Both the position numbers and the translations under genes were made by a program. Positions 2,957-44,477 of a DNA stretch of 44,477 bases are shown here, one piece after another. The notes beneath the pieces are model-generated. The model saw nothing but the letters and a program-made list of their open reading frames with translations. It was not told the DNA's origin and ran no database searches. Positions within the stretch are counted from its first letter, which is position 1, and every line of letters begins with the position of its first letter. Origin of the DNA: a virus (taxonomy: Duplodnaviria > Caudoviricetes); the IMG/VR virus record IMGVR_UViG_3300048577_000131, positions 1 through 44,477 of that record; one strand, written 5' to 3'.

Positions 2957-3249
2957 TGCGGCACCTCGATGTTGTGCTTCTTCAGCTCGAACTCCAGGCG
3001 CATGATCCGCATGGTCAGTTCGTAGACCTTGGCCTCAGCGTCCCGCCGCGCCTTGCGCTCCTCGTCCAGCCCGTTCTCCAGCGTCACAAGCCGAGCCTCT
3101 TGGGATGCGATGCGCTCTCCCAGCTGGCCGACCAGCGCGTCGCTGGCCTTGCCCTCCGGCGACAGAAAGCGGTCCCAGGCCACCTTGCCCAGCAAGAGCA
3201 GCAGTCCAAGCCCGCTTCCAACACCCCAGACGGTCGCGTCGTCCATCAC
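2953..3249 (-). CDS. Putative holin
   Basis: 98 aa, N-terminal TM plus coiled coil, between endolysin and spanins with overlapping start/stop codons. Confidence 0.65.
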   Translation of the reverse strand: MMDDATVWGVGSGLGLLLLLGKVAWDRFLSPEGKASDALVGQLGERIASQEARLVTLENGLDEERKARRDAEAKVYELTMRIMRLEFELKKHNIEVPQ

Positions 3250-3686
3250 GCCAACGCCTCCCGGACGCCGGCTGCGATCACCGGCTCCGGCCAGAACAGG
3301 CCGCCGTTCTCGTGCCGCGCAATGGCCATGACCAGCCGCCCAAGCGTCACCTGCCGGTCCAACCGGATGATCTCGGTTGCACCTACGCCAACCTCTCTGG
3401 CCACCTGCCGGACATAGGCACCAGTGTCGTTTTCGACCGGCGGTGCCCAGCGATTGATGATCTCCTTGACCGTCCTCAGCCCGTGCTTGCGCTGGTAGGT
3501 CAGCAGGGTCTTGGCTAGCGCCCGGAACCCCGCCTGCGGCGTCAGGAATACGCAGAAGCGCGGCTCACGCTTGATCGCCTCGGGGCTGCGATCCTCGCCC
3601 TGCCAGGCAACCGCAGTGCGGTCGATGTTCCCGGGGTTGTTGTTACGCACACCCCGGGGAGTCTTCTTGTTCGCTTGCTGGCCCAT
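3246..3686 (-). CDS. Putative endolysin (RNNNPGNI lysozyme-like family, often labelled structural protein P5)
   Basis: RGVRNNNPGNI, RWAPPVENDT..Y, IARHENG motifs; first gene of lysis cassette. Confidence 0.75.
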   Translation of the reverse strand: MGQQANKKTPRGVRNNNPGNIDRTAVAWQGEDRSPEAIKREPRFCVFLTPQAGFRALAKTLLTYQRKHGLRTVKEIINRWAPPVENDTGAYVRQVAREVGVGATEIIRLDRQVTLGRLVMAIARHENGGLFWPEPVIAAGVREALA

Positions 3687-3710
3687 GCCCTGCCCCGTTC
3701 CGTTTCGGAC

Positions 3711-3741
3711 ATGCTGGGGCAGTGGGGATCCGGTTCAACGG
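3711..3741 (-). promoter_or_regulatory. Putative late promoter (lysis)
   Basis: CCG-TTGAAC-N16-CAGCAT upstream of endolysin. Confidence 0.6.
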
Positions 3742-3814
3742 GCAAGAAGCCCAAGAGGGCAGCCGAGGGGTAAGCTGGCAGGCACGACCCAGCCAGCCCA
3801 CCACGGACAGACTT

Positions 3815-4297
3815 ATGGATAAGCTCAACCGCGACCTGCAACGGACGCTATTGGAAGCCCTTGCCGCCTCTTACCCTGAGCCGGTCTATGCGGACTTCCT
3901 TCGTCAGCATGCGCCCGGCTCCGAACTCGAGGTGAACATCGCCTACCTAGGCGAACACGAGCTTGTCGTTGCGTCGTTCATGGGGACCCTGGATGGGGGA
4001 AATCCACTCATGACGGCCAAGATCACGGCCAAGGGGCTGGACTTTCTTGCTGACGATGGTGGCCTTGGCGCCATTCTAGGCGTGCTTACCATTCGGCTCC
4101 ACGAAGACTCCATCAAGCAGCTGATTGCGAGGCAGATCAACGCGTCTGACCTAGCCCCGCCCGACAAGAAGCGATATCTCGATCGGCTGCGAGAGCTGCC
4201 TGCCGAGACCACCAAACACCTTGTACTGAAGATGGTTGATGCTGGTCTAGAGAACTGGCAGAAAGCACTTCCACTGCTTCAAAACATCTTGGGGTAG
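3815..4297 (+). CDS. Moron: hypothetical protein with N-terminal winged-helix-like region
   Basis: ATG 3815; ITAKGLDFLADDGGLGAIL motif; opposite to late strand; TAAGCT -10-like at 3771. Confidence 0.75.
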   Translation: MDKLNRDLQRTLLEALAASYPEPVYADFLRQHAPGSELEVNIAYLGEHELVVASFMGTLDGGNPLMTAKITAKGLDFLADDGGLGAILGVLTIRLHEDSIKQLIARQINASDLAPPDKKRYLDRLRELPAETTKHLVLKMVDAGLENWQKALPLLQNILG

Positions 4298-4415
4298 AAG
4301 GCATCCGGCGGAAGCGGATGTAGGTTTCCGCGTTGATTTTGACGAGGAACTCGTCCTCGTGAGCATCAACGCCGTCGAAGAACAGCCCGCGAGGGGCGAG
4401 TACTACGGCTTCCAT
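4137..4415 (-). CDS. Possible small ORF downstream of late-type promoter, overlapping 3' end of moron
   Basis: ATG 4415 about 30 nt after a -10; 160 bp antisense overlap lowers confidence. Confidence 0.25.
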   Translation of the reverse strand: MEAVVLAPRGLFFDGVDAHEDEFLVKINAETYIRFRRMPSTPRCFEAVEVLSASSLDQHQPSSVQGVWWSRQAALAADRDIASCRAGLGQTR

Positions 4416-4447
4416 CGGGTGACCTGGGCTGGCGGCTGTGATGAATG

Positions 4448-4478
4448 AAGCTACAGGGCCACAGCCGGCGCTCAACGG
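4448..4478 (-). promoter_or_regulatory. Putative late promoter upstream of lysis region
   Basis: CCG-TTGAGC-N16-TAGCTT. Confidence 0.55.
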
Positions 4479-4643
4479 GGCAGCGGGCGCCCCACCAAAG
4501 TCGCCCTCCCCCGGCACTGACCCCGGGTCAGCGCCACCTAGGGCCGGCGCACAGCCCGAATGAGCGCCGGGCAGACCGGCCCCCTGCCCTCCCCGCCACC
4601 CGGTGGTAGGATTCGGCCCATCTAAGGATGGGGGGATAGGGAA

Positions 4644-5189
4644 ATGAGCATTCGAACGACTGTTGTGGCCGTAGCTGCGGCTTCCGCATTGACTGGCTGC
4701 ATGAACCTGGCTACCAAGCCAGCGGAAATCACCGGCTCGTACACGTCGGACGTGAAGTATCAGAGCTACACCTGCGAACAACTCGGCGTCGAGGTGAACT
4801 CGCTGGCCCGCAGGGAAGATCAACTCGCCATTGCGCAGGAGCAGCGCCGCAAGAGCGGAAAGGTGCAGGCATTCTGGCTCGGCTACGGAACTGGCGACGG
4901 CATTGAGGCATCTGAACTCGCAAATGTCCGCGGGGAGAAGGAGGCGGTCCGCCGTTCCATGGACAAGAAGGCATGCGGCGGACCTCAGCAGGCAATTGCG
5001 TCAGCGGCGTCTGCTTCCGCCCATGTCGAGTCAACTGCCCCGGCGACTGGTGCCAGTTCCAGTTGGCGCAGTTGGGGATCGTCCGGCGCGGCGCAAGGCC
5101 AGCAGAAGACGCTTTACCGGTGCCCCGGTGCCAACGGAGCGGAGGTCGTGTCCGAAACACCAGCGGCGGGGTGCATCGTCATCAAGTAA
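4644..5189 (+). CDS. Moron lipoprotein
   Basis: Signal peptide with lipobox LTG-C; paired Cys; C-terminal YRCPGANG..SETP..GC segment; extended -10 TGGTAGGAT at 4604-4612. Confidence 0.85.
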   Translation: MSIRTTVVAVAAASALTGCMNLATKPAEITGSYTSDVKYQSYTCEQLGVEVNSLARREDQLAIAQEQRRKSGKVQAFWLGYGTGDGIEASELANVRGEKEAVRRSMDKKACGGPQQAIASAASASAHVESTAPATGASSSWRSWGSSGAAQGQQKTLYRCPGANGAEVVSETPAAGCIVIK

Positions 5190-5196
5190 GGGAATT

Positions 5197-5228
5197 GCTA
5201 CCACCCCCTCCCGCAGGGTGGTAGCTTT
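5197..5228 (+). terminator. Hairpin after lipoprotein gene, overlapping an extended -10 for the next moron
   Basis: GCTACCACCC-N9-GGGTGGTAGC then TTT; TG-G-TAGCTT at 5219-5227. Confidence 0.5.
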
Positions 5229-5260
5229 GCCGGGTCTAGGGATGGGGGATGGGGATGGGG

Positions 5261-5629
5261 ATGGACAAGCCAAAGATCATGGCTCTATTGATCTGCCTAG
5301 GATGCCCATGGCAATCCTCAGCACAGGTCATGCAGACCACTGGCGACCTCTACCAGACCTGTAAAGATGCTGACTTTGAACGGCTAGGCGATCTTTCAGC
5401 GGCAGCTTGCGGCTACTACATGGCCGGAGCAACTGAAGCCATAGTGATAGCTGGTCAATTAGGCTCTCATCGAAGCTATTGCCTACCCTCGACCATTTTC
5501 CCAAAGCAGGCCGCCGCTGTTTTCGTTAAATGGGCAGAAAAGAACCCAGAGCAATGGCACTACCCCAGAGCTGCCGGCTTGTTCAACGCACTGTCGGAAG
5601 CATTTCCCTGCTCCCCGCGCCAGAACTAG
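5261..5629 (+). CDS. Rap1a/Tai-family immunity protein (periplasmic)
   Basis: Signal peptide; TGDLYQTC, CGYYMAG, YCLP, KWAEKNPEQWH, ALSEAFPC match the Rap1a pattern. Confidence 0.88.
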   Translation: MDKPKIMALLICLGCPWQSSAQVMQTTGDLYQTCKDADFERLGDLSAAACGYYMAGATEAIVIAGQLGSHRSYCLPSTIFPKQAAAVFVKWAEKNPEQWHYPRAAGLFNALSEAFPCSPRQN

Positions 5630-5638
5630 AATCACATC

Positions 5639-5698
5639 ATGAGCCAACCCACAGACATCCAAGACGCCGAGATAGTCCCCACTACCGTGGACGCAAAG
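5639..5698 (+). pseudogene. Probable truncated moron 5' end
   Basis: TAGAAT -10 six nt before ATG (MSQPTDIQDAEIVP), but the frame runs into a terminator after about 20 codons. Confidence 0.35.
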
Positions 5699-5728
5699 AG
5701 AACCCGCCGAGAGGCGGGTTCTGTGTTT
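5699..5728. terminator. Bidirectional intrinsic terminator
   Basis: AGAACCCGCC-GAGA-GGCGGGTTCT between convergent units, T-rich on both sides. Confidence 0.75.
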
Positions 5729-5798
5729 AGGGCGCAGCAGTCAGGCCATCAGCGGGCCAGCATCTATGCCCAGGGGATGTCAGCGCCGGCAGTCCCGA

Positions 5799-6074
5799 TC
5801 ATGCCGCCGCCCTCGCCACAACAGCCTCTTTGCTGAACTCATTCTGTTGCTTGATCAGGCAATCAAGCCCATTCGCCCAGTCCTGCACAACGTAAAGCCC
5901 CATCTCGGCAAGATCGCTGATGTTCCTGCCCTTCTCGTTCCTGATTGCCGAAAACAGCGCGCCGATCTGATTCAGCTGCGCCTGGCACACCTCCAACTCG
6001 CTCAGCAGGCTCTGGATGCGGCTCTCCAGCTGCGCCTCGCGTTCACTGCTACCCGCTACAATCTTGCTTGCCAT
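5799..6074 (-). CDS. Hypothetical helical protein, last gene of arc-ant operon
   Basis: RBS GGGAG, ATG 6074, 91 aa coiled-coil-like. Confidence 0.65.
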   Translation of the reverse strand: MASKIVAGSSEREAQLESRIQSLLSELEVCQAQLNQIGALFSAIRNEKGRNISDLAEMGLYVVQDWANGLDCLIKQQNEFSKEAVVARAAA

Positions 6075-6139
6075 GATCGTCTCCCATTAGACGGTTGTGG
6101 TAGGCCGGGCCGGGAGTCCTACCTCCCGGTTCGGCCGCT

Positions 6140-6352
6140 TTACTTCTTGATGTGGTCTTGCAGTGCCGCGATCAGGCGTTCAGCGGTGGCGTTGTCCAGC
6201 GTCACCGCGTCCACCCCGAGCTCAAACGTCGCCTGCAGCCGATAAATGATCTCCGCACTGATTGATCGGCGACTCTCTGCCGCAGCGACCACAAGCGCTT
6301 GCTGCAAATCAGCCGGGAACCTCAGCTTGAATTGCGCGTACGTGCGACTCAT
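6140..6352 (-). CDS. Arc-family ribbon-helix-helix protein
   Basis: QFKLRFPADL...RRSISAEIIYRL; ATGA overlap with antirepressor. Confidence 0.85.
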   Translation of the reverse strand: MSRTYAQFKLRFPADLQQALVVAAAESRRSISAEIIYRLQATFELGVDAVTLDNATAERLIAALQDHIKK

Positions 6353-7128
6353 GCCGCAGCATCCAGTGGATAGGGGAACAGCGCGCCAATGTCTATGTCA
6401 TAGACCGAAAGCCACGCCCCAGCCGGCCAAGCCTTCACGCTGCCATACCGCTCATCCATCACGTCCACCGCGCCAACTCCGTTGGCTTTGCTCCACGCCC
6501 GAAGCCCAACATAGGCATTCTTGGCGAACTTGGTGCCGATGGCCTTCTCCACTGCGATCACCGTGGCGTGGCGACTATTCCTGCCCAGCTCGTCCCGCAG
6601 CCGGTTTGCCTCACGGACAGCCGCTGAAGCCCTTGCCATTGCCGTAGCTTCGCGCCGGCTGCCGATTTCCGCCTTAGTGGCAATTGCGTGATCCCGCTCC
6701 TTCTCCACCTCAATCCGCCGCTGCTCTGATTCCAGCGCAGCCTGCAGGATTTCCAGCTTGGTCAACTCCCTCGGCTGGGCCTGCTTCTGCTCCAGCTCAG
6801 TCATCCGGTCGAACACCACGGCCTGGATCTCGTAGCTGTAGCTCATCGCCATCAGGCAAGCCTCCCGCTTGGGGAAGGTGTAGAGCGGATTGGCCTTACC
6901 GTTGCTAGCGGTGTAGTAGCCGGAAAAATTTCCGGCTACTGCCGCACCGAGGACTTCGGGGACCTTCTTCAGGAAATCCGAATGTTCCAGCTTGGCGTAA
7001 CCCTTGGACGGGAACGCCGCGCCCTCCAGCCGGGCTTGCTCTGCCCGGAACTCGTTCACGAATTCGACCAGTTCCAAGCTGGTCATCGTCACTTGGGCAT
7101 CGCCCTGCCCGATCACCAGCCCGTTCAT
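6349..7128 (-). CDS. Antirepressor-like protein (Rha-type N-terminus)
   Basis: MTSLELVEF, HSDFLKKVPEVL, FPKREACLMAMSYSY; TKAEIGSRREATAMA C-terminal region; downstream of arc. Confidence 0.8.
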   Translation of the reverse strand: MNGLVIGQGDAQVTMTSLELVEFVNEFRAEQARLEGAAFPSKGYAKLEHSDFLKKVPEVLGAAVAGNFSGYYTASNGKANPLYTFPKREACLMAMSYSYEIQAVVFDRMTELEQKQAQPRELTKLEILQAALESEQRRIEVEKERDHAIATKAEIGSRREATAMARASAAVREANRLRDELGRNSRHATVIAVEKAIGTKFAKNAYVGLRAWSKANGVGAVDVMDERYGSVKAWPAGAWLSVYDIDIGALFPYPLDAAA

Positions 7129-7280
7129 GCGGCCTCCTTCTGCTCGGCCCGCTCCTTCCGCTCTTGGATCGCAATCACGATCTCAGCGGTCAGGCTCCTA
7201 CGATTCTTCTCCTTCTGGGCTTCCAGCCATGTCCTCAGGTCATGAGGGAGCCGGAAGTTGACCTGTACATCGGTACGCAT
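7125..7280 (-). CDS. Arc-like repressor
   Basis: VQVNFRLPHDL...NRRSLTAEIV; RBS AAGGAG; ATG 7280. Confidence 0.85.
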   Translation of the reverse strand: MRTDVQVNFRLPHDLRTWLEAQKEKNRRSLTAEIVIAIQERKERAEQKEAA

Positions 7281-7311
7281 CACCGTTCTCCTTTGTGGTA
7301 GTACGGTGGTA

Positions 7312-7340
7312 GATATACATCCGTGATACATGGCTGTCAA
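7312..7340 (-). promoter_or_regulatory. Pant-like sigma70 promoter for arc-ant operon
   Basis: TTGACA-N17-TATATC; ATGTAT and CTACCAC direct repeats nearby as candidate operators. Confidence 0.7.
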
Positions 7341-7366
7341 CCACGGTGATGCACTACGATTGCCGG

Positions 7367-7639
7367 ATGGCCCGTACAGACCCTCAGTTCAACCTTCGCA
7401 TCCCCATTGACCTCAAGGTGAAGGTGGAGGAAGCGGCAAAAGCCAACGGCCGCTCAGCCACATCAGAAATCCTCGCCAGGCTGGAACAGTCCTTCGCCAT
7501 CGCGGACTCGCCGGAGAAGGAAATTCACCTTTCCCGTATGCAGCTCAACGAGTTGGTGCAGTCCATCACGGACCAGGTCGCCTCGCACTTGGCCGGCGCA
7601 CCTGAGGCGTTGGGGCGCACGCCCAAGAAGGGCAAGTAG
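7367..7639 (+). CDS. Mnt/Arc-family repressor divergent from arc
   Basis: MARTDPQFNLRIP...NGRSATSEILARL; TACGAT -10 six nt before ATG. Confidence 0.88.
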   Translation: MARTDPQFNLRIPIDLKVKVEEAAKANGRSATSEILARLEQSFAIADSPEKEIHLSRMQLNELVQSITDQVASHLAGAPEALGRTPKKGK

Positions 7640-7698
7640 CGTCCGCAGCCCCAGAGCGCCCGATTCTGACCAGCTGGCAACCCTGAAGCGTTACGCTA

Positions 7699-7727
7699 TT
7701 GTCACAGTCCCATTTTGGGACTATGGT
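7699..7727 (+). promoter_or_regulatory. higBA promoter with embedded palindromic operator
   Basis: TTGTCA-N17-TATGGT; AGTCCCA-TTT-TGGGACT at 7706-7722. Confidence 0.75.
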
Positions 7728-7734
7728 GGCACCC

Positions 7735-8040
7735 ATGCGAGTCATCGCCCGCTCAACCCTTGAGACCTTCTGGACCATCCATGCCGATACCAAGCAGCCG
7801 CTACAGGCTTGGTACGACGAGGCGTCTGCGGCCAAGTGGAGAAGTCCACAGGACATCAAGGATGTCTACGCTAGTGCAAGCTTTGTTGGCACCAACCGTG
7901 TGGTGTTCAACATCAAAGGCGGCAATTACCGCCTGATCGCTGCAGTTGCTTACAACTACCAGGCCGTCTACATCAAATTTATCGGCACCCATGCCGAGTA
8001 CGACAAGATCGACGCCGCAACGGTGGAGATGAAGCTATGA
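7735..8040 (+). CDS. higB: HigB-family toxin (mRNA interferase)
   Basis: MRVIARSTLETFW, RVVFNIKGGNYRLI, KFIGTHAEYD. Confidence 0.93.
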   Translation: MRVIARSTLETFWTIHADTKQPLQAWYDEASAAKWRSPQDIKDVYASASFVGTNRVVFNIKGGNYRLIAAVAYNYQAVYIKFIGTHAEYDKIDAATVEMKL

Positions 8041-8396
8041 ATATTCGCCCTATCCGTACCCATGCCGACTACGAGGCTTCCCTACAGGAAGCCTCGTATT
8101 TCTTCGACCACGAACCCGCCCCTGGCACCGAGGATGGCGACAAGTTTGAGATCCTGATCACCCTGATCGAGTCTTACGAAGCCAAGCACTACCCGATTGA
8201 AGCACCCGATCCCGTCGAGGCGATCAAGTTCCGTATGGAGCAATCCGGCCTGACGGCGAAGGATCTGGTTCCCAGCATCGGCCAGCAGAACCGCGTTTAT
8301 GAGGTTCTGAGCGGCAAGCGTGAGTTGACCCTGCCGATGATCAGAAGGCTGCACAGGAATCTTGGTATCCCAGTCGAAAGCCTCGTCGGTGCCTGA
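8037..8396 (+). CDS. higA: HigA-family antitoxin (HTH)
   Basis: IRPIRTHADY, PDPVEAIKFRMEQSGL, EVLSGKRELTLPMIRRL; ATGA overlap with higB. Confidence 0.93.
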   Translation: MNIRPIRTHADYEASLQEASYFFDHEPAPGTEDGDKFEILITLIESYEAKHYPIEAPDPVEAIKFRMEQSGLTAKDLVPSIGQQNRVYEVLSGKRELTLPMIRRLHRNLGIPVESLVGA

Positions 8397-8414
8397 TCCC
8401 ACAGATGTTCAACG

Positions 8415-8447
8415 CAAAGCCCCGCCTAGTGCGGGGCTTTGTTGTTT
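8415..8447 (+). terminator. Intrinsic terminator after higA
   Basis: CAAAGCCCCGC-CTAGT-GCGGGGCTTTG followed by TTGTTT. Confidence 0.8.
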
Positions 8448-8461
8448 GGTAGCTTTGGGCC

Positions 8462-8815
8462 ATGGGCCTCCTCATCGCCGCGCTAACTGTGTGGGACTAC
8501 GTGCTGGCGTATGCAGGCGGTGCGCTCTTCCTATACGCAGGGTTGGTTCTTCTGCCCAAGGGCATACGGCAATTCCTGCTATTCCTCTGGAAGACCATGC
8601 CCAATGGCCGGATCAAGTCATTTCTGTTCAGGTGGCGAGGCCGACCTGACCACTCCATGATCGACCCCCGCGATCCGTGGGTACAGGCTCAGTGGATCAA
8701 AAAGCCCCAACAGCGCACCAACCGCATCAACGCACCCGCAGAATTCATCCCGGGGGAGCGCGTCGACCAGCCTAGAAGCGGAACTCATCAGCAGGGACCG
8801 GAGTCCCGCCAATGA
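8462..8815 (+). CDS. Small membrane protein at the sieA-like position
   Basis: Hydrophobic N-terminal half; convergent with and overlapping the ejection gene; extended -10 TGGTAGCTT six nt before ATG. Confidence 0.6.
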   Translation: MGLLIAALTVWDYVLAYAGGALFLYAGLVLLPKGIRQFLLFLWKTMPNGRIKSFLFRWRGRPDHSMIDPRDPWVQAQWIKKPQQRTNRINAPAEFIPGERVDQPRSGTHQQGPESRQ

Positions 8816-26476: not shown

Positions 26477-26686
26477 CTACGCATCTCGCAGCTCGTCCAG
26501 GACCTCGTCGTCCAATCGGAACGCCGGCAGGCGACCGTCGATGTCGCACGCACCCTGCCGGTCCGGCTGGCGCCGGCAGTGGAACACCCCGTCGCTCAGC
26601 TCACGGAACTGGCACACCGAGCAGCGCCCATGGCGGCGAACCCGGGCTCGGTAGCGCTTCCACATGCGGGCGTTTGCGTCGGTCAA
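26477..26686 (-). CDS. Small Cys-rich (putative Zn-binding) basic protein
   Basis: TTGA overlap with ruvC-like stop; CSVC...HC...C; Arg-rich N-terminus. Confidence 0.6.
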   Translation of the reverse strand: MTDANARMWKRYRARVRRHGRCSVCQFRELSDGVFHCRRQPDRQGACDIDGRLPAFRLDDEVLDELRDA

Positions 26687-27198
26687 GCGGCCACCCCGCT
26701 GGCCAGGCGCTGTTCCCCGTACAGGGCAATCAGCAGGGCATCGGCCCGGCCGTTGTCCTTCTTCCGCTTCAGCTCGGCCGCCACAGTGGGGAACCGCTGG
26801 ATCGCCAGCACCCGGGACGCATCCTTGGGCTGGCCGGTCAGGCCGAACTGGCGCTTCCAACTGGCCGGCTCGGCGCGGGTGTACGGGATGCCTAGCAGCT
26901 CCAGCACCGCCTTGGCCTTGCCGTAGTGGTCGCCGAAGTTGAACGACGACTGCGCGCCAGCCCTCCGCTCGCCGTCCTTGGGCGGCATCGCCCGGACGCG
27001 CTCAATGACCGCCGACACCGCGGCGCCAGGGTGAAGGTCCCGAGCGGCACGGATGAACAGCGCCACCTGCCGGGCATCCACCTCCCTGTCCTCGCCCAGC
27101 AGCGGCATGTCGATGATCGGGCCAGCCTCGCCGTCGGCCAGCACAGCGATGGCCCCGGAAATGCCTGGGTCGATCCCAAAAATCAGGCGACTTGCCAT
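26683..27198 (-). CDS. RuvC-like Holliday junction resolvase
   Basis: GIDPGISGAIA, VIERV, P.SWK, DNGRADALLIA. Confidence 0.9.
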   Translation of the reverse strand: MASRLIFGIDPGISGAIAVLADGEAGPIIDMPLLGEDREVDARQVALFIRAARDLHPGAAVSAVIERVRAMPPKDGERRAGAQSSFNFGDHYGKAKAVLELLGIPYTRAEPASWKRQFGLTGQPKDASRVLAIQRFPTVAAELKRKKDNGRADALLIALYGEQRLASGVAA

Positions 27199-27566
27199 GC
27201 GCGCGTCCTCAGTTGGTGCTGTTCGATCAGGGTGTTCTGCAGGTCCAGCAGGTAGTCGTCGCTGCCGATCTCCTGCCGGAACCGGCGGGGCTGCTTGGCG
27301 TAGCTGGGGCCGAACAGGCGTTCGCAGGTCTCGGCCGACATGCCGCCGAACGGCTCGCCGCGATGGCTCCAGGAATTCAGGCCGACGGTGAAGTCATGAC
27401 CGCGCCGCTTGGCGCCGTGCTTGCCGCCGACGGTCAGGTGGTGCACCTCGCAGGGGACGTGCCCGAGGCCCAGGCTGTGGGCGACGATGCAGCCAATCTC
27501 GGTGATGGCGTCCATTCGGGTCTGCTGGGCAGCCGTCGGCTTGCCGGTTGAGCGGCCGCGCTTCAT
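27183..27566 (-). CDS. Ref/NinG-like HNH nuclease
   Basis: GCIV, EVHHL, RRGHDFTVGL...HRG, FGPS; nin-region position. Confidence 0.75.
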   Translation of the reverse strand: MKRGRSTGKPTAAQQTRMDAITEIGCIVAHSLGLGHVPCEVHHLTVGGKHGAKRRGHDFTVGLNSWSHRGEPFGGMSAETCERLFGPSYAKQPRRFRQEIGSDDYLLDLQNTLIEQHQLRTRAWQVA

Positions 27567-27634
27567 GCAGCACCCCATTTCCGAAGAGCCCGAACTAAAC
27601 TCCGGCCCACAACATCAGGGGAACATTGACATCC

Positions 27635-28261
27635 ATGAAGGAATCGATCACAGGACGAGACCTGTTCGTCATCAGCACCGTATGCACTGGATTTGGCGTG
27701 CTTCTGGCTTGGGGCCTGTTCTACCGATGGGGGAGTGCACCGCCATCCAAACCCATTGACTGGCCGGCTTGGGCACAAGCAATTGGCAGCATCATTGCCA
27801 TTGCCGTGGCCATAGCGGTTCCTTGGTCCATACATCGAGCTGCGGAGGCGTCTGATAAGCGCGTTGAGTATCTGCAAGCCACAACGATCGCAGGCGCATT
27901 CCAACCATTCATTAGCTACTACCGCGGCCGAGCAAATTCTCTTCGCAAGATGCTTGAGCAGAATTACTCGGAGAAGCAAATTGCGGAGTTGGTTCCAAAG
28001 AATGCCTTTGATGTTGCGCCGACCATTCAGCAGTTCCATCCAAAGCTCTACATGCTTGGCGAGGCGGGCATTGTGGCTAGTGAATTCGTTGCGAATTTGT
28101 TCTGGATGTCGCTCTACATGGAGATACTTCACAAGGGGCATGGTGGGAATGCTAGGGACCAGGCACTCATTGATTGCAAGAACCTGATTGCAGTCGCAGA
28201 TGAGCTCGAACCATTGATCAACCCGTTCTGTAGACCCCGCGATAGACGAGTTAGGAAGTAG
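27635..28261 (+). CDS. Moron membrane protein (two N-terminal TMs plus soluble domain)
   Basis: Visibly AT-richer; WPAWAQAIGSIIAIAVAIAVP; antisense to nin operon. Confidence 0.8.
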   Translation: MKESITGRDLFVISTVCTGFGVLLAWGLFYRWGSAPPSKPIDWPAWAQAIGSIIAIAVAIAVPWSIHRAAEASDKRVEYLQATTIAGAFQPFISYYRGRANSLRKMLEQNYSEKQIAELVPKNAFDVAPTIQQFHPKLYMLGEAGIVASEFVANLFWMSLYMEILHKGHGGNARDQALIDCKNLIAVADELEPLINPFCRPRDRRVRK

Positions 28262-28269
28262 GCTGAACT

Positions 28270-28725
28270 TCATGCAACCCTCCGCTGCTGCTCGCCGTAG
28301 TCGCGATACCGCGGTTCGTTCAGCCGCACACCGTTCTCCACGGCCCAGGCCTGCGCGAAGGTGATCAGGTCCGCCATGTCGCCCACGGACATGGTCCGGG
28401 TCTGCACGGCCAGGTTCACCACGCTGGCGCCGTCCAGCGACGGCACGATGTCGCCCTGCTGCCGGCTTTCGGTACGCGCCCAGGCGTCGACCAGCAGGCG
28501 CTTCCAGCCCTCCTTGTCGATCCAGCGGCCGGCCCACTGCCGCTGCTGGGCGATGTCCTCGCAGATGGCATGGAGCATCGCGTTCTGCTCCAGACTGCGA
28601 GTGGACTTGCACTCCTTGACCTCGACGCGGACGGCCCGGCCGAGCTCCAGGTACTGGCAGGCAAAGCGCCAGGCCGCGGCCATGCGGTCCCGGGCGTTCT
28701 CGGCCCGGAGGATGAAGGTACTCAT
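28270..28725 (-). CDS. ninB: NinB-family recombination protein
   Basis: TRSLEQNAMLHA...DIA.Q..W.G, WK.L, IVPSLDG, TRTMSV..M.DLI. Confidence 0.9.
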   Translation of the reverse strand: MSTFILRAENARDRMAAAWRFACQYLELGRAVRVEVKECKSTRSLEQNAMLHAICEDIAQQRQWAGRWIDKEGWKRLLVDAWARTESRQQGDIVPSLDGASVVNLAVQTRTMSVGDMADLITFAQAWAVENGVRLNEPRYRDYGEQQRRVA

Positions 28726-31795: not shown

Positions 31796-32014
31796 TCAGG
31801 CTGCCACCCCTTCACGTGCCAGCTGCGTCTGCTGCCACTGGGCGAACATCGCCGCCGCGAACTCGGCATTGGTACGCTGCTCGACCAAGGCCCAGAAACC
31901 GATCTCGGCCATGGCATCCTCTGCATAGCCGGCAGGCACCCCGCCATTGGCGGCGCACCACTCCAACATGCGGCCATGGGCCGTGAGCAACCGATCCGAG
32001 GTCTTCTCAGACAT
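31796..32014 (-). CDS. Hypothetical protein after cro
   Basis: RBS GGAGG, ATG 32014, ends EGVAA. Confidence 0.6.
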   Translation of the reverse strand: MSEKTSDRLLTAHGRMLEWCAANGGVPAGYAEDAMAEIGFWALVEQRTNAEFAAAMFAQWQQTQLAREGVAA

Positions 32015-32180
32015 GGCCACCTCCGAACAGATCGACGCGGCACTGGCGAGGCTGGAACGAGCCAAGGCCGAGAGGGACAGCTGGAAAGGTCGCAGCGACC
32101 ACCACTACGCGATGGCTGCGCATCTGGTCGCTGCCCTGGAGAAGGAGCTCGCCAGACTGTTGAGCGAAGGCGAACACTAG
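32013..32180 (+). CDS. 55-aa helical protein antisense within the cro operon
   Basis: MATSEQIDAALARLERAKAERD...; GAGG upstream; start and stop share palindromes with flanking genes. Confidence 0.6.
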   Translation: MATSEQIDAALARLERAKAERDSWKGRSDHHYAMAAHLVAALEKELARLLSEGEH

Positions 32181-42272: not shown

Positions 42273-42476
42273 TTATTCGGAAGTTTCTTCACTTCCCTGT
42301 GCAGCGGGCTCGTCGCCGCGCTGGATACGCTGGAAAATTTCCTCACGGTGCACCGCCACGTCCTTGGGCGCGGTGATACCGATACGTACCTGGTTGCCCT
42401 TGACGCCGAGCACGGTCACGCTGACCGAGTCACCAATCATCAGGGTTTCGCCTACACGGCGAGTCAGGATCAACAT
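42273..42476 (-). CDS. csrA: Carbon storage regulator CsrA
   Basis: [16 protein letters not shown]...[21 protein letters not shown]. Confidence 0.98.
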
Positions 42477-42615
42477 TGTGCGAGTCTCCATGGAACCGGT
42501 GGGGGTTTCCCACCGGCATTGGCGCGCCAAGAACCTGCGCCCCACGACAAAGGGAAAAGACTCCCAATGTTAATGGCAGGCCGCAGGCACCTTCAAGGCG
42601 CGCGGCTGCCTGCGT

Positions 42616-44477
42616 TCATGCCAAGTGTGGCTTGATCCATTCCAGCACGCCGTCGAGCGCGGCGACCAGCCTGGGACCGTCTTCACCGCCACCCTGTGCC
42701 AGATCAGGACGACCACCGCCCTTGCCCCCGATCTGACCGGCGACATGGGACAACAGTTCCCCGGCCTTGACCCTGCCCATTGCCGAGCCATTGACGCCTG
42801 CGACCAGGGAGGCCTTGCCGTCCTGGGTACCGGCCAACAGGATCACCGCATCGCCCAGCTGCTGCTTGAGCCGGTCCATCGCCTCGCGCAGCGCCTTGGC
42901 GTCGAAACCCTCAAGGCGCGCCGCCAGCACCTTCACGCCGCCGATCTCGACCGCCGAAGCACCGAGGTCGGCAGTCGCGCCCGAGGCCAGCTTGGCCTTG
43001 AGGGCCTCCAGCTCGCGCTCGAGCCGCTTCTGCCGCTCGCCGAGCTGGCGGATCTTCTCCACCACATCGGTCGCCGCCCCGCCCAGCAGGCTGGCAGCCT
43101 CGGCCAGGCGGGCTTCCTCGGCATCCACGTGGTCCAGCGCGCCCTGCCCGGTGACGGCCTCGATGCGGCGCACGCCGGACGAGACGCCGCCCTCGGCGGT
43201 GATCTTGAACAGGCCGATGTCGCCGGTGCGCGACACGTGGGTGCCACCGCACAACTCGGTCGAGTAGTCACCCATCTTCAGCACGCGCACGTTCTCGCCG
43301 TACTTTTCGCCGAACAGTGCCATCGCCCCGAAATCCAGCGCCTCCTGCATGCCCATGTGGTGCACTTCGGCGGCGTTGTTGGCGCGGATCTGCTCGTTGA
43401 CCTTGCGCTCGATGAGCGCCAGTTCCGCGCTGCTGATCGGCTGGAAATGCGAGAAATCGAAGCGCAGGCGGTCCGGCGCCACCAGCGAGCCCTTCTGCTG
43501 CACATGGCTGCCCAGCACTTCGCGCAGCGCGGCATGCAGCAGGTGGGTGGCCGAGTGGTTGAGGATGGTGGCACCGCGACGGGCGCTGTCGATCCCGCCG
43601 GCGAGCATGTCGCCGAGCTTGATCACGCCCTGCTTCACGGTACCGACGTGGCCGTGGAACTGGCCGGCGAACTTCTGCGTATCGGCAACCGCAAGCTCCA
43701 CGCCGCTGCAGGACAGCATGCCGGTATCGCCAATCTGGCCGCCGGATTCAGCATAGAACGGCGTCCTGTCGGTGAACAGGATCACCTCGTCACCCGCCTG
43801 CACCTCCTCCACCGGACGGCCGCCCTTGAGCAGGGCAACCACCTTGAGGCCGTCGGCGTGCTGCTGGTCGTACCCCAGGAAGACGGTGGGCGACAGGGTC
43901 GCGACCAGCTCGGCGGGCAGCGTCACGCCACCGCCGAACTTGCCGGCGGCGCGCGCCATCTCGCGCTGGTGCTCCATGGCGCTGTCGAAGCCGGCCATGT
44001 CCACCGTCATGCCGCGCTCGCGGGCGATGTCGGCGGTCAGGTCGACCGGGAAGCCATAGGTGTCGTACAGGCGGAAGGCATCGGCACCCGGAATGACGCC
44101 ATCGTCGACCTTGGCCGCGACGTCGTCGAAGATCTTCATGCCCGCGTCCAGGGTCTCGGCGAACCGCTCCTCCTCGGCCAGCAGCGCCTTGTGCACCGTG
44201 GTGGCGGCGGCCGGCAGCTCCGGATAGGCCTCACCCATCTGCTCGACCAGGGTCGGCACCAGCTTGTGGAAGAACGGCTGGCGCACGCCCAGCATCCAGC
44301 CATGGCGCAGGGCGCGGCGGATGATCCGGCGCAGCACATAGCCGCGGCCTTCGTTGGACGGCAGCACGCCATCGACGATGAGGAACGAACAGGCGCGGAT
44401 ATGGTCGGCGATCACGCGCAGCGACTTGTTCTCCAGGTCGGCGGTGCCGGTCAGCCCGGCCGCCTGGCGGATCAGCG
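42616..44477 (-). CDS. alaS: Alanine-tRNA ligase (5' part outside window)
   Basis: ADHIRA, NHSATHLLH, ELCGGTH, GVRRIEA, GGKGGGRPDLAQGG. Confidence 0.98.
   Translation of the reverse strand, partial: LIRQAAGLTGTADLENKSLRVIADHIRACSFLIVDGVLPSNEGRGYVLRRIIRRALRHGWMLGVRQPFFHKLVPTLVEQMGEAYPELPAAATTVHKALLAEEERFAETLDAGMKIFDDVAAKVDDGVIPGADAFRLYDTYGFPVDLTADIARERGMTVDMAGFDSAMEHQREMARAAGKFGGGVTLPAELVATLSPTVFLGYDQQHADGLKVVALLKGGRPVEEVQAGDEVILFTDRTPFYAESGGQIGDTGMLSCSGVELAVADTQKFAGQFHGHVGTVKQGVIKLGDMLAGGIDSARRGATILNHSATHLLHAALREVLGSHVQQKGSLVAPDRLRFDFSHFQPISSAELALIERKVNEQIRANNAAEVHHMGMQEALDFGAMALFGEKYGENVRVLKMGDYSTELCGGTHVSRTGDIGLFKITAEGGVSSGVRRIEAVTGQGALDHVDAEEARLAEAASLLGGAATDVVEKIRQLGERQKRLERELEALKAKLASGATADLGASAVEIGGVKVLAARLEGFDAKALREAMDRLKQQLGDAVILLAGTQDGKASLVAGVNGSAMGRVKAGELLSHVAGQIGGKGGGRPDLAQGGGEDGPRLVAALDGVLEWIKPHLA

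Follow-up and report, generated by a model that had tools for sequence, protein, structure and literature searches.

A stop-free operon-strand frame over reverse-strand cargo genes in Stenotrophomonas-type prophages, a probable ribosome relay between ninB and ref

Genes inserted in reverse orientation between ninB and ref in Stenotrophomonas-type prophages are overlain, on the operon strand, by a reading frame devoid of stop codons, which begins in the stop of the upstream gene and ends on the start of ref. Judging from comparison of the sequences, this frame, hereafter the bridge, probably works as a relay that hands ribosomes on across the insert, the protein it encodes being irrelevant.

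The window, i.e., the whole 44,477-nt stretch that was analysed (a 44.5-kb virus record), carries on its minus strand a repressor/cro switch, a replication initiator, DnaB, ninB, a ref-like nuclease and a Holliday junction resolvase, and among named relatives, prophages of Stenotrophomonas acidaminiphila come closest to it. The upstream coupled gene is ninB, for the Orf recombination mediator (28270..28725, minus strand; PF05772, E 1e-33; phrog_72), the downstream one encodes the ref-like RecA-dependent nuclease (27183..27566, minus strand; PF16786, E 2e-15), and the Holliday junction resolvase gene (26683..27198, minus strand; phrog_1770, E 9e-35) comes next in the operon. Between ninB and ref, which overlap directly in empty sites, sits an antisense cargo gene of 208 aa (27635..28261, plus strand; an in-frame TTG at 27626 is also possible). 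It is a moron, an extra gene missing from relatives, and its lower GC content (0.51-0.57 vs. about 0.68 in the flanks) agrees with the AT-richness ascribed to it in the earlier note. The bridge (27563..28273, minus strand; 236 aa, MKFSLL...KWGAA) crosses the moron just as that note had described: its ATG at 28273 overlaps the ninB stop in an ATGA, and its TGA at 27565-27563 overlaps the ref ATG at 27566 in another. The two frames are also, as had been remarked, in codon register, so that the bridge needs only the absence of TTA, CTA and TCA from the cargo, and none of the three occurs in its 212 codons. A Shine-Dalgarno-like GGAGGG recognised inside the end of ninB (28278..28283, minus strand) precedes the bridge start, with a duplex energy of -10.0 (mean -9.8 across 27 cargo groups); in empty sites this GGAGGG-type element precedes ref instead. 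On the other strand the cargo has a Shine-Dalgarno-like AGGGGA (27617..27622, plus strand), and similar motifs, regularly spaced, stand before most reverse-strand cargo starts. No intrinsic terminator was called for the cargo on the plus strand, and its stop lies 8 nt from that of ninB. Elsewhere in the window, two adjacent plus-strand genes of low GC content (7723-8396, in an accessory cluster at 3700-8800) resemble a HigB/HigA-type toxin-antitoxin pair, and the ORFs at 42273-44415 resemble host csrA and alanyl-tRNA synthetase, which suggests that host DNA adjoining the attachment site forms the end of the record.

To survey the slot, loci from IMG/VR and GTDB were chosen by homology to ref and not by the presence of a bridge (13 + 61 loci, with Ref as the only query), the gap being measured between ref and the gene that follows DnaB, either ninB or a ninB-like gene of phrog_319. 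A gap of 450-1000 nt was found in 53 loci, the window counted, six of which were set aside for inserts with a GC content of at least 0.62 (L007, L070, L034, L038, L044 and L062; those of L007 and L070 are ordinary sense genes); gaps outside these limits, loci with no DnaB match and L013, with no ref match, were also left out. The remaining 47 loci, all in Stenotrophomonas-type prophages, each contain one long reverse-strand ORF of low GC content, and in 47 of 47 the frame on the operon strand has no internal stop and is coupled on either side, running from a start within the upstream stop (ATGA, GTGA, TGATG or TAATG) to a stop on the ref start. Whether other cargos at the site keep the antisense frame open, a check proposed beforehand, is thereby answered in the affirmative. 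The cargos fall into 28 groups at 70% identity and 27 at 50%, not fully independent because most belong to one family; 21 distinct insert lengths, all 1 mod 3, occur among 27 groups. Relatives with an empty site and a direct ATGA overlap of ninB and ref, which had likewise been called for, were found in L026, L027 and L051, and the cultured phage SBP2phi2 has a ref-like gene with no reverse cargo at that place. In two single genomes near-identical ref regions occur twice, about 52 kb (L001/L002) and about 37 kb (L005/L006) apart, and are either tandem prophages or duplicated assemblies.

The arrangement extends beyond the main cargo family and beyond the counted slots. The slot of L050 (2312-2956) holds an unrelated DUF4145 cargo and is bridged; in L078 a single frame of 465 aa spans two tandem cargos and their spacer and ends with ATGA on a ref-like gene; L046 has a bridged cargo between a ninB-like gene and a methyltransferase; L039, outside the slot count, is bridged; and in L077 the cargo of the window stands before a different ref-like gene, the 236-codon frame being kept with a TGATG junction. 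A bridged cargo is found in the other early operon as well (G015). Several further observations belong to the same subject. The DUF4145 gene of L050 has N-terminal cysteine pairs. At G015:C1:2929-4250 the bridge over the reverse cargo (3141-3752) is of a fusion type: it extends the frame of the operon gene before it without a break and runs on through a small gene downstream. At L008:2720-2970 a reverse ORF of 81 aa is out of codon register with a coupled operon-strand frame of 95 aa. In the window, a plus-strand ORF of 55 codons behind cro (32007-32180) is in register with a minus-strand frame of 56 codons, which starts at the cro stop (TAGTG) and ends 8 nt into the next gene; this is possibly a second, small relay, although its shortness and its GC content of 64% make chance the likely explanation, and the arrangement was found in one of 20 other prophages.

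The moron had been described as flanked by a 9-bp duplication, and CTTCATGCA is indeed present at 27561..27569 (left copy, bridge stop and ref start) and at 28268..28276 (right copy, ninB stop and bridge start), the copies being 707 nt apart, not extendable on either side and the only two on this strand. The target-site duplication implied by that description did not hold up: nine matching junction bases, the longest such match, are seen in one of the 28 cargo groups, that of the window, two or fewer in 19 of 28, and the repeat is absent from L077 with its same cargo. Site-specific insertion of the moron with duplication of a 9-bp target is thus very unlikely, since the insert also has no recombinase and no inverted ends, even if eight of the nine bases match the empty site (GCATGAAG). 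A conserved duplication of this kind is contradicted as a general feature, and an old duplication of the junction may still have occurred. The repeat is best read as the coupling motif GCATGA, present at both junctions, plus three bases.

Evidence for selection on the frame comes from the codons that would close it. Among the 5,484 cargo codons of 28 representatives not one is TTA, CTA or TCA, where about 137 were expected under a conservative synonymous model, whereas the two other frames of these genes contain them 224 and 180 times. For the window gene alone, an open frame has P = 0.006 under the synonymous-codon model and about 0.05 at the rate of control genes, so that the codon statistics proposed earlier are suggestive for the single case and decisive for the family. 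A frame left open by GC-rich codon usage, or inherited from a single ancestor, would be a mere shadow of the cargo, and the core genes (about 68% GC) do contain only 16 such codons in 4,745, just as most cargos do share ancestry. The cargos, however, have a GC content of 50-61% and make free use of other rare codons ending in A (ATA 50, GTA 50 and ACA 44 in the 28 representatives, against 1, 7 and 6 in the 4,745 core codons). Synonymous differences involving A are absent at CTN and TCN (0/26), as compared to 71/140 in the other four-fold boxes (P 1e-7) and 7/33 at GTN (P 0.014), and in diverged pairs the third positions differ at about half of the codons without ever reaching TTA, CTA or TCA, the frame and its junction being kept over 21 lengths. 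Control genes of low GC content from the same phages (20 related prophages and the window, called with a home-made, unvalidated gene finder) contain 1.49 such codons per 100 when co-oriented and 1.42 at operon boundaries, context classes for which the codon-model strand calls of the flanks are too noisy, and six of 36 contain none. An open shadow frame is therefore a most improbable account, and the bridges are better described as long reverse frames that selection maintains on top of a real gene, as in ambigrammatic sequences.

Reverse genes do not all share the property. Among the reverse-embedded genes 20 of 36 are free of the three codons, 16 of these 20 being in the ninB-ref slot, and those of the late region contain antisense stops, some with hairpin terminators of their own. 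Antisense stops in homologues had been named beforehand as what would speak against a relay, and among 68 relatives picked by the membrane motif 52 are open and 16 have stops. The relay is not refuted by them, as the stops fall mostly where the coupled junction is missing: a downstream start coincides with the end of the frame in 37 of the 52 open relatives vs. one of the 16 with stops, and a coupled start opens it in 40 of 52 vs. three of 16. The 15 open relatives with no coupled downstream start by this test count against the relay. Several of the 16 with stops are lower in GC, and the open ones reach down to 0.49.

The two overlapping frames are under very different constraints. Differences over ten close pairs fall 88, 46 and 238 times on cargo codon positions 1, 2 and 3, with pN/pS at 0.11 in the cargo and 1.2 in the bridge, the latter a value that selection on the cargo inflates by mirror effect and that leaves room for weak selection on the bridge; dual coding, with purifying selection on both proteins, is not what these values describe. 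In the pair L003/L059 identity is 0.45 for the bridge and 0.81 for the cargo, and mean column identity of the bridge is 14%. The structure model of the cargo is helical and confident (pLDDT 89.6, pTM 0.72), that of the bridge shows no confident fold (pLDDT 63.3, pTM 0.32), and 20 non-self homologues were found for the cargo protein, against a single one for the bridge in 5.8 billion proteins; a Pfam and PHROG search assigned the bridge to no family. The cargo is taken as the real protein because pN/pS, fold models and homologue counts all favour it, and on this comparative evidence the bridge would be only kept open. A functional bridge protein, e.g., an antidote to the cargo as anti-Tab or Ith, forming a true dual-coding pair with it, could explain the strong Shine-Dalgarno motif and coupled start, which the bridge has like any operon gene, and anti-Tab itself lies on the operon strand beside the minus-strand tab (PMC10884400). 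The bridge model does show helices, and the pair formed by the window and L077 is an exception that leans to conservation of the bridge (9, 0 and 6 differences at cargo codon positions 1, 2 and 3, clustered in the 5' part except for one). The far faster loss of identity in the bridge, its pN/pS, column identity, single non-self homologue and low pTM, and the fact that unrelated cargo and a two-gene span share the same design, nevertheless make such an antidote quite improbable. A C-terminal alanine degron on the bridge was considered and dropped: all but one of the 27 bridges scored end in Ala, an ending which is not diagnostic because the ATGA overlap, and neighbouring real genes, give the same.

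The cargo of the window has two predicted membrane helices with a W-x-Q motif, followed by an all-helical domain, the hydrophobic stretches lying at residues 10-28 and 49-67. The slot cargo proteins share the N-terminal hydrophobic helix and the W-x-Q motif, and a stretch above 1.6 on the Kyte-Doolittle scale is present in 23 of 28 groups. Pfam, PHROG, PADLOC and solved-fold searches returned no known defence or exclusion family for the cargo, its best PHROG match being phrog_33632 (unknown function; E 0.002). Its genomic context makes phage exclusion or defence at the membrane a likely role.

A putative promoter of the cargo is suggested by a -10-like element that coincides with the ref start or lies shortly ahead of it. 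Read on the cargo strand, this start is CATGCT in 42 of 49 cargo loci and in none of 24 others; TTGCCG precedes it by 17 nt, within ref. After de-duplication xAxxxT stands at the ref start in 24 of 28 cargo groups vs. one of 16 cargo-free loci; the remaining four groups, the window included, have TA[AG]A[AC]T in a longer spacer (0/40 others), which brings the element to 28 of 28 vs. one of 16. We take these hexamers to be -10 elements by the usual consensus, and that of the window would be TAAACT (27596..27601, plus strand), which a consensus promoter scan of the window did not call. In two RNA runs of one study, contigs with neither strand nor level cover the cargo (27675-28117 and 27624-28048) and the repressor, with no listed cover over ref and the resolvase, and two other runs show an even, DNA-like cover throughout; these contigs are at most a weak hint.

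In another reading, that of a noncontiguous-operon switch, translation of the frame serves above all to let the early transcript pass across the cargo and shut it off in lytic growth, coupling to ref being a by-product. Cargo and operon are convergent by geometry, the -10-like element is present in every cargo group, and phages of S. aureus turn defence genes off on induction by antisense nesting (PMC11087260). Collision of polymerases, on the other hand, needs transcription only, and silencing leaves unexplained the precise coincidence of the frame's stop with the following start in the 47 slot loci and in most open relatives. We regard it as unlikely to be the main function, while noting that silencing and relay are compatible.

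The relay itself may be pictured as follows. In the lysogen the cargo would be expressed from a promoter of its own. Once the prophage is induced, the early transcript would traverse the cargo backwards, and ribosomes finishing ninB would re-initiate on the bridge. These would cover about 700 nt of AT-richer RNA, otherwise naked and exposed to Rho termination or decay, and re-initiation at ref would sustain expression of ref, of the resolvase and of the genes that follow. A likely reason for the codon-to-codon register is that TTA and CTA (Leu) and TCA (Ser) can all be removed silently there, and a frame that stops exactly on the next start favours coupling. Coupling and avoidance of Rho-dependent polarity are not mutually exclusive. 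Translational coupling at ATGA and TGATG overlaps was seen in 13 of the 14 pairs tested (PMC6728339), and in lambda, blocks within the nin region had polar effects on downstream Q (PMC10695390). The ref start has a Shine-Dalgarno-like motif of its own, so that ref may not strictly depend on coupling. On the operon strand the insert has a C/G ratio of 1.06 (about 1.1 in ref itself) and offers no obvious Rho target because it is only mildly C-rich; no late-gene antiterminator was identified downstream in the window. The idea that the complement of the cargo Shine-Dalgarno motif occludes the ribosome-binding site of ref was dropped, as the opening cost of the ref start was 19.2 kcal/mol with cargo (28 loci) vs. 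18.1 without (16 loci; P 0.25). Neither C-richness nor occlusion thus served to tell coupling from Rho polarity. The inference previously drawn, that ribosomes are carried across the insert, is strongly supported on the comparative side by the coupled open frame, the absent stop-forming synonymous codons and the unconserved bridge protein; the implied target-site duplication is not supported.

Parts of this design are known from other systems. The lambda nin region reportedly consists of interlinked genes and offers the same ninB neighbourhood. Ambigrammatic narnaviruses keep two frames in codon-to-codon register and avoid CUA, UUA and UCA. In noncontiguous operons, such as tha/ith of S. aureus phage 80alpha (PMC11087260), an antisense gene with its own promoter, a putative one in our case, is likewise nested in an operon of a temperate phage, and a switch between lysogeny and lysis is likely in both; the nested gene of that system is not described as lying under a stop-free, doubly coupled frame, whereas the cargo of the window is recoded and the operon strand stays translatable. 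Culex narnavirus 1 has a long reverse ORF with no homologues, the translation of which may itself be the function (PMC8316113), and the bridge is similarly a long, homologue-poor reverse ORF over a real gene. Narnaviruses are RNA viruses of eukaryotes with overlap over the whole segment and no operon, while the window is a dsDNA prophage with interchangeable cargos and a frame coupled to its neighbours at both ends. The junction motifs are those of ATGA/TGATG termination-reinitiation coupling (PMC6728339); known chains of this kind link real genes, and in the present one a link is formed by a filler frame that lacks conservation and covers a gene of the opposite strand. Tab of JBD26 is also a minus-strand moron inside a phage operon, with its own promoter (PMC10884400), a putative one in the case of the cargo; anti-Tab is a separate conserved protein beside tab, whereas the bridge lies over the full cargo and shows no conservation. 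Besides these systems, the literature searched, mostly other than subscription papers, contained antisense overlapping genes, and no coupled relay frame over a phage accessory gene.

On balance, we favour the view that temperate phages possess a class of ORFs that exist only to be translated, relays that turn any slot of a coupled early operon into a plug-in site for backward defence genes recoded without TTA, CTA and TCA, the ref start doubling as promoter of the cargo, whereby the slot would provide promoter and relay alike. If this is true, the three-codon gap would be a genome-wide marker of cargo expressed in lysogens, and many annotated hypothetical genes of phage operons would be fillers assigned to the wrong strand. 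Gene callers, and anyone codon-optimising such cargos, should take note of this design. The slot also brings to light a fast-evolving, unannotated family of membrane proteins, in a hotspot that holds a DUF4145 gene as well. The relay predicts polarity from a single base change silent in the cargo, which makes it testable whether translation as such, and not its product, can be the function of a long antisense ORF, and would place selection on a frame for openness alone within a simple bacterial system. For the phages themselves, it would provide a rule for how genes expressed in the lysogen are added to coupled lytic operons.
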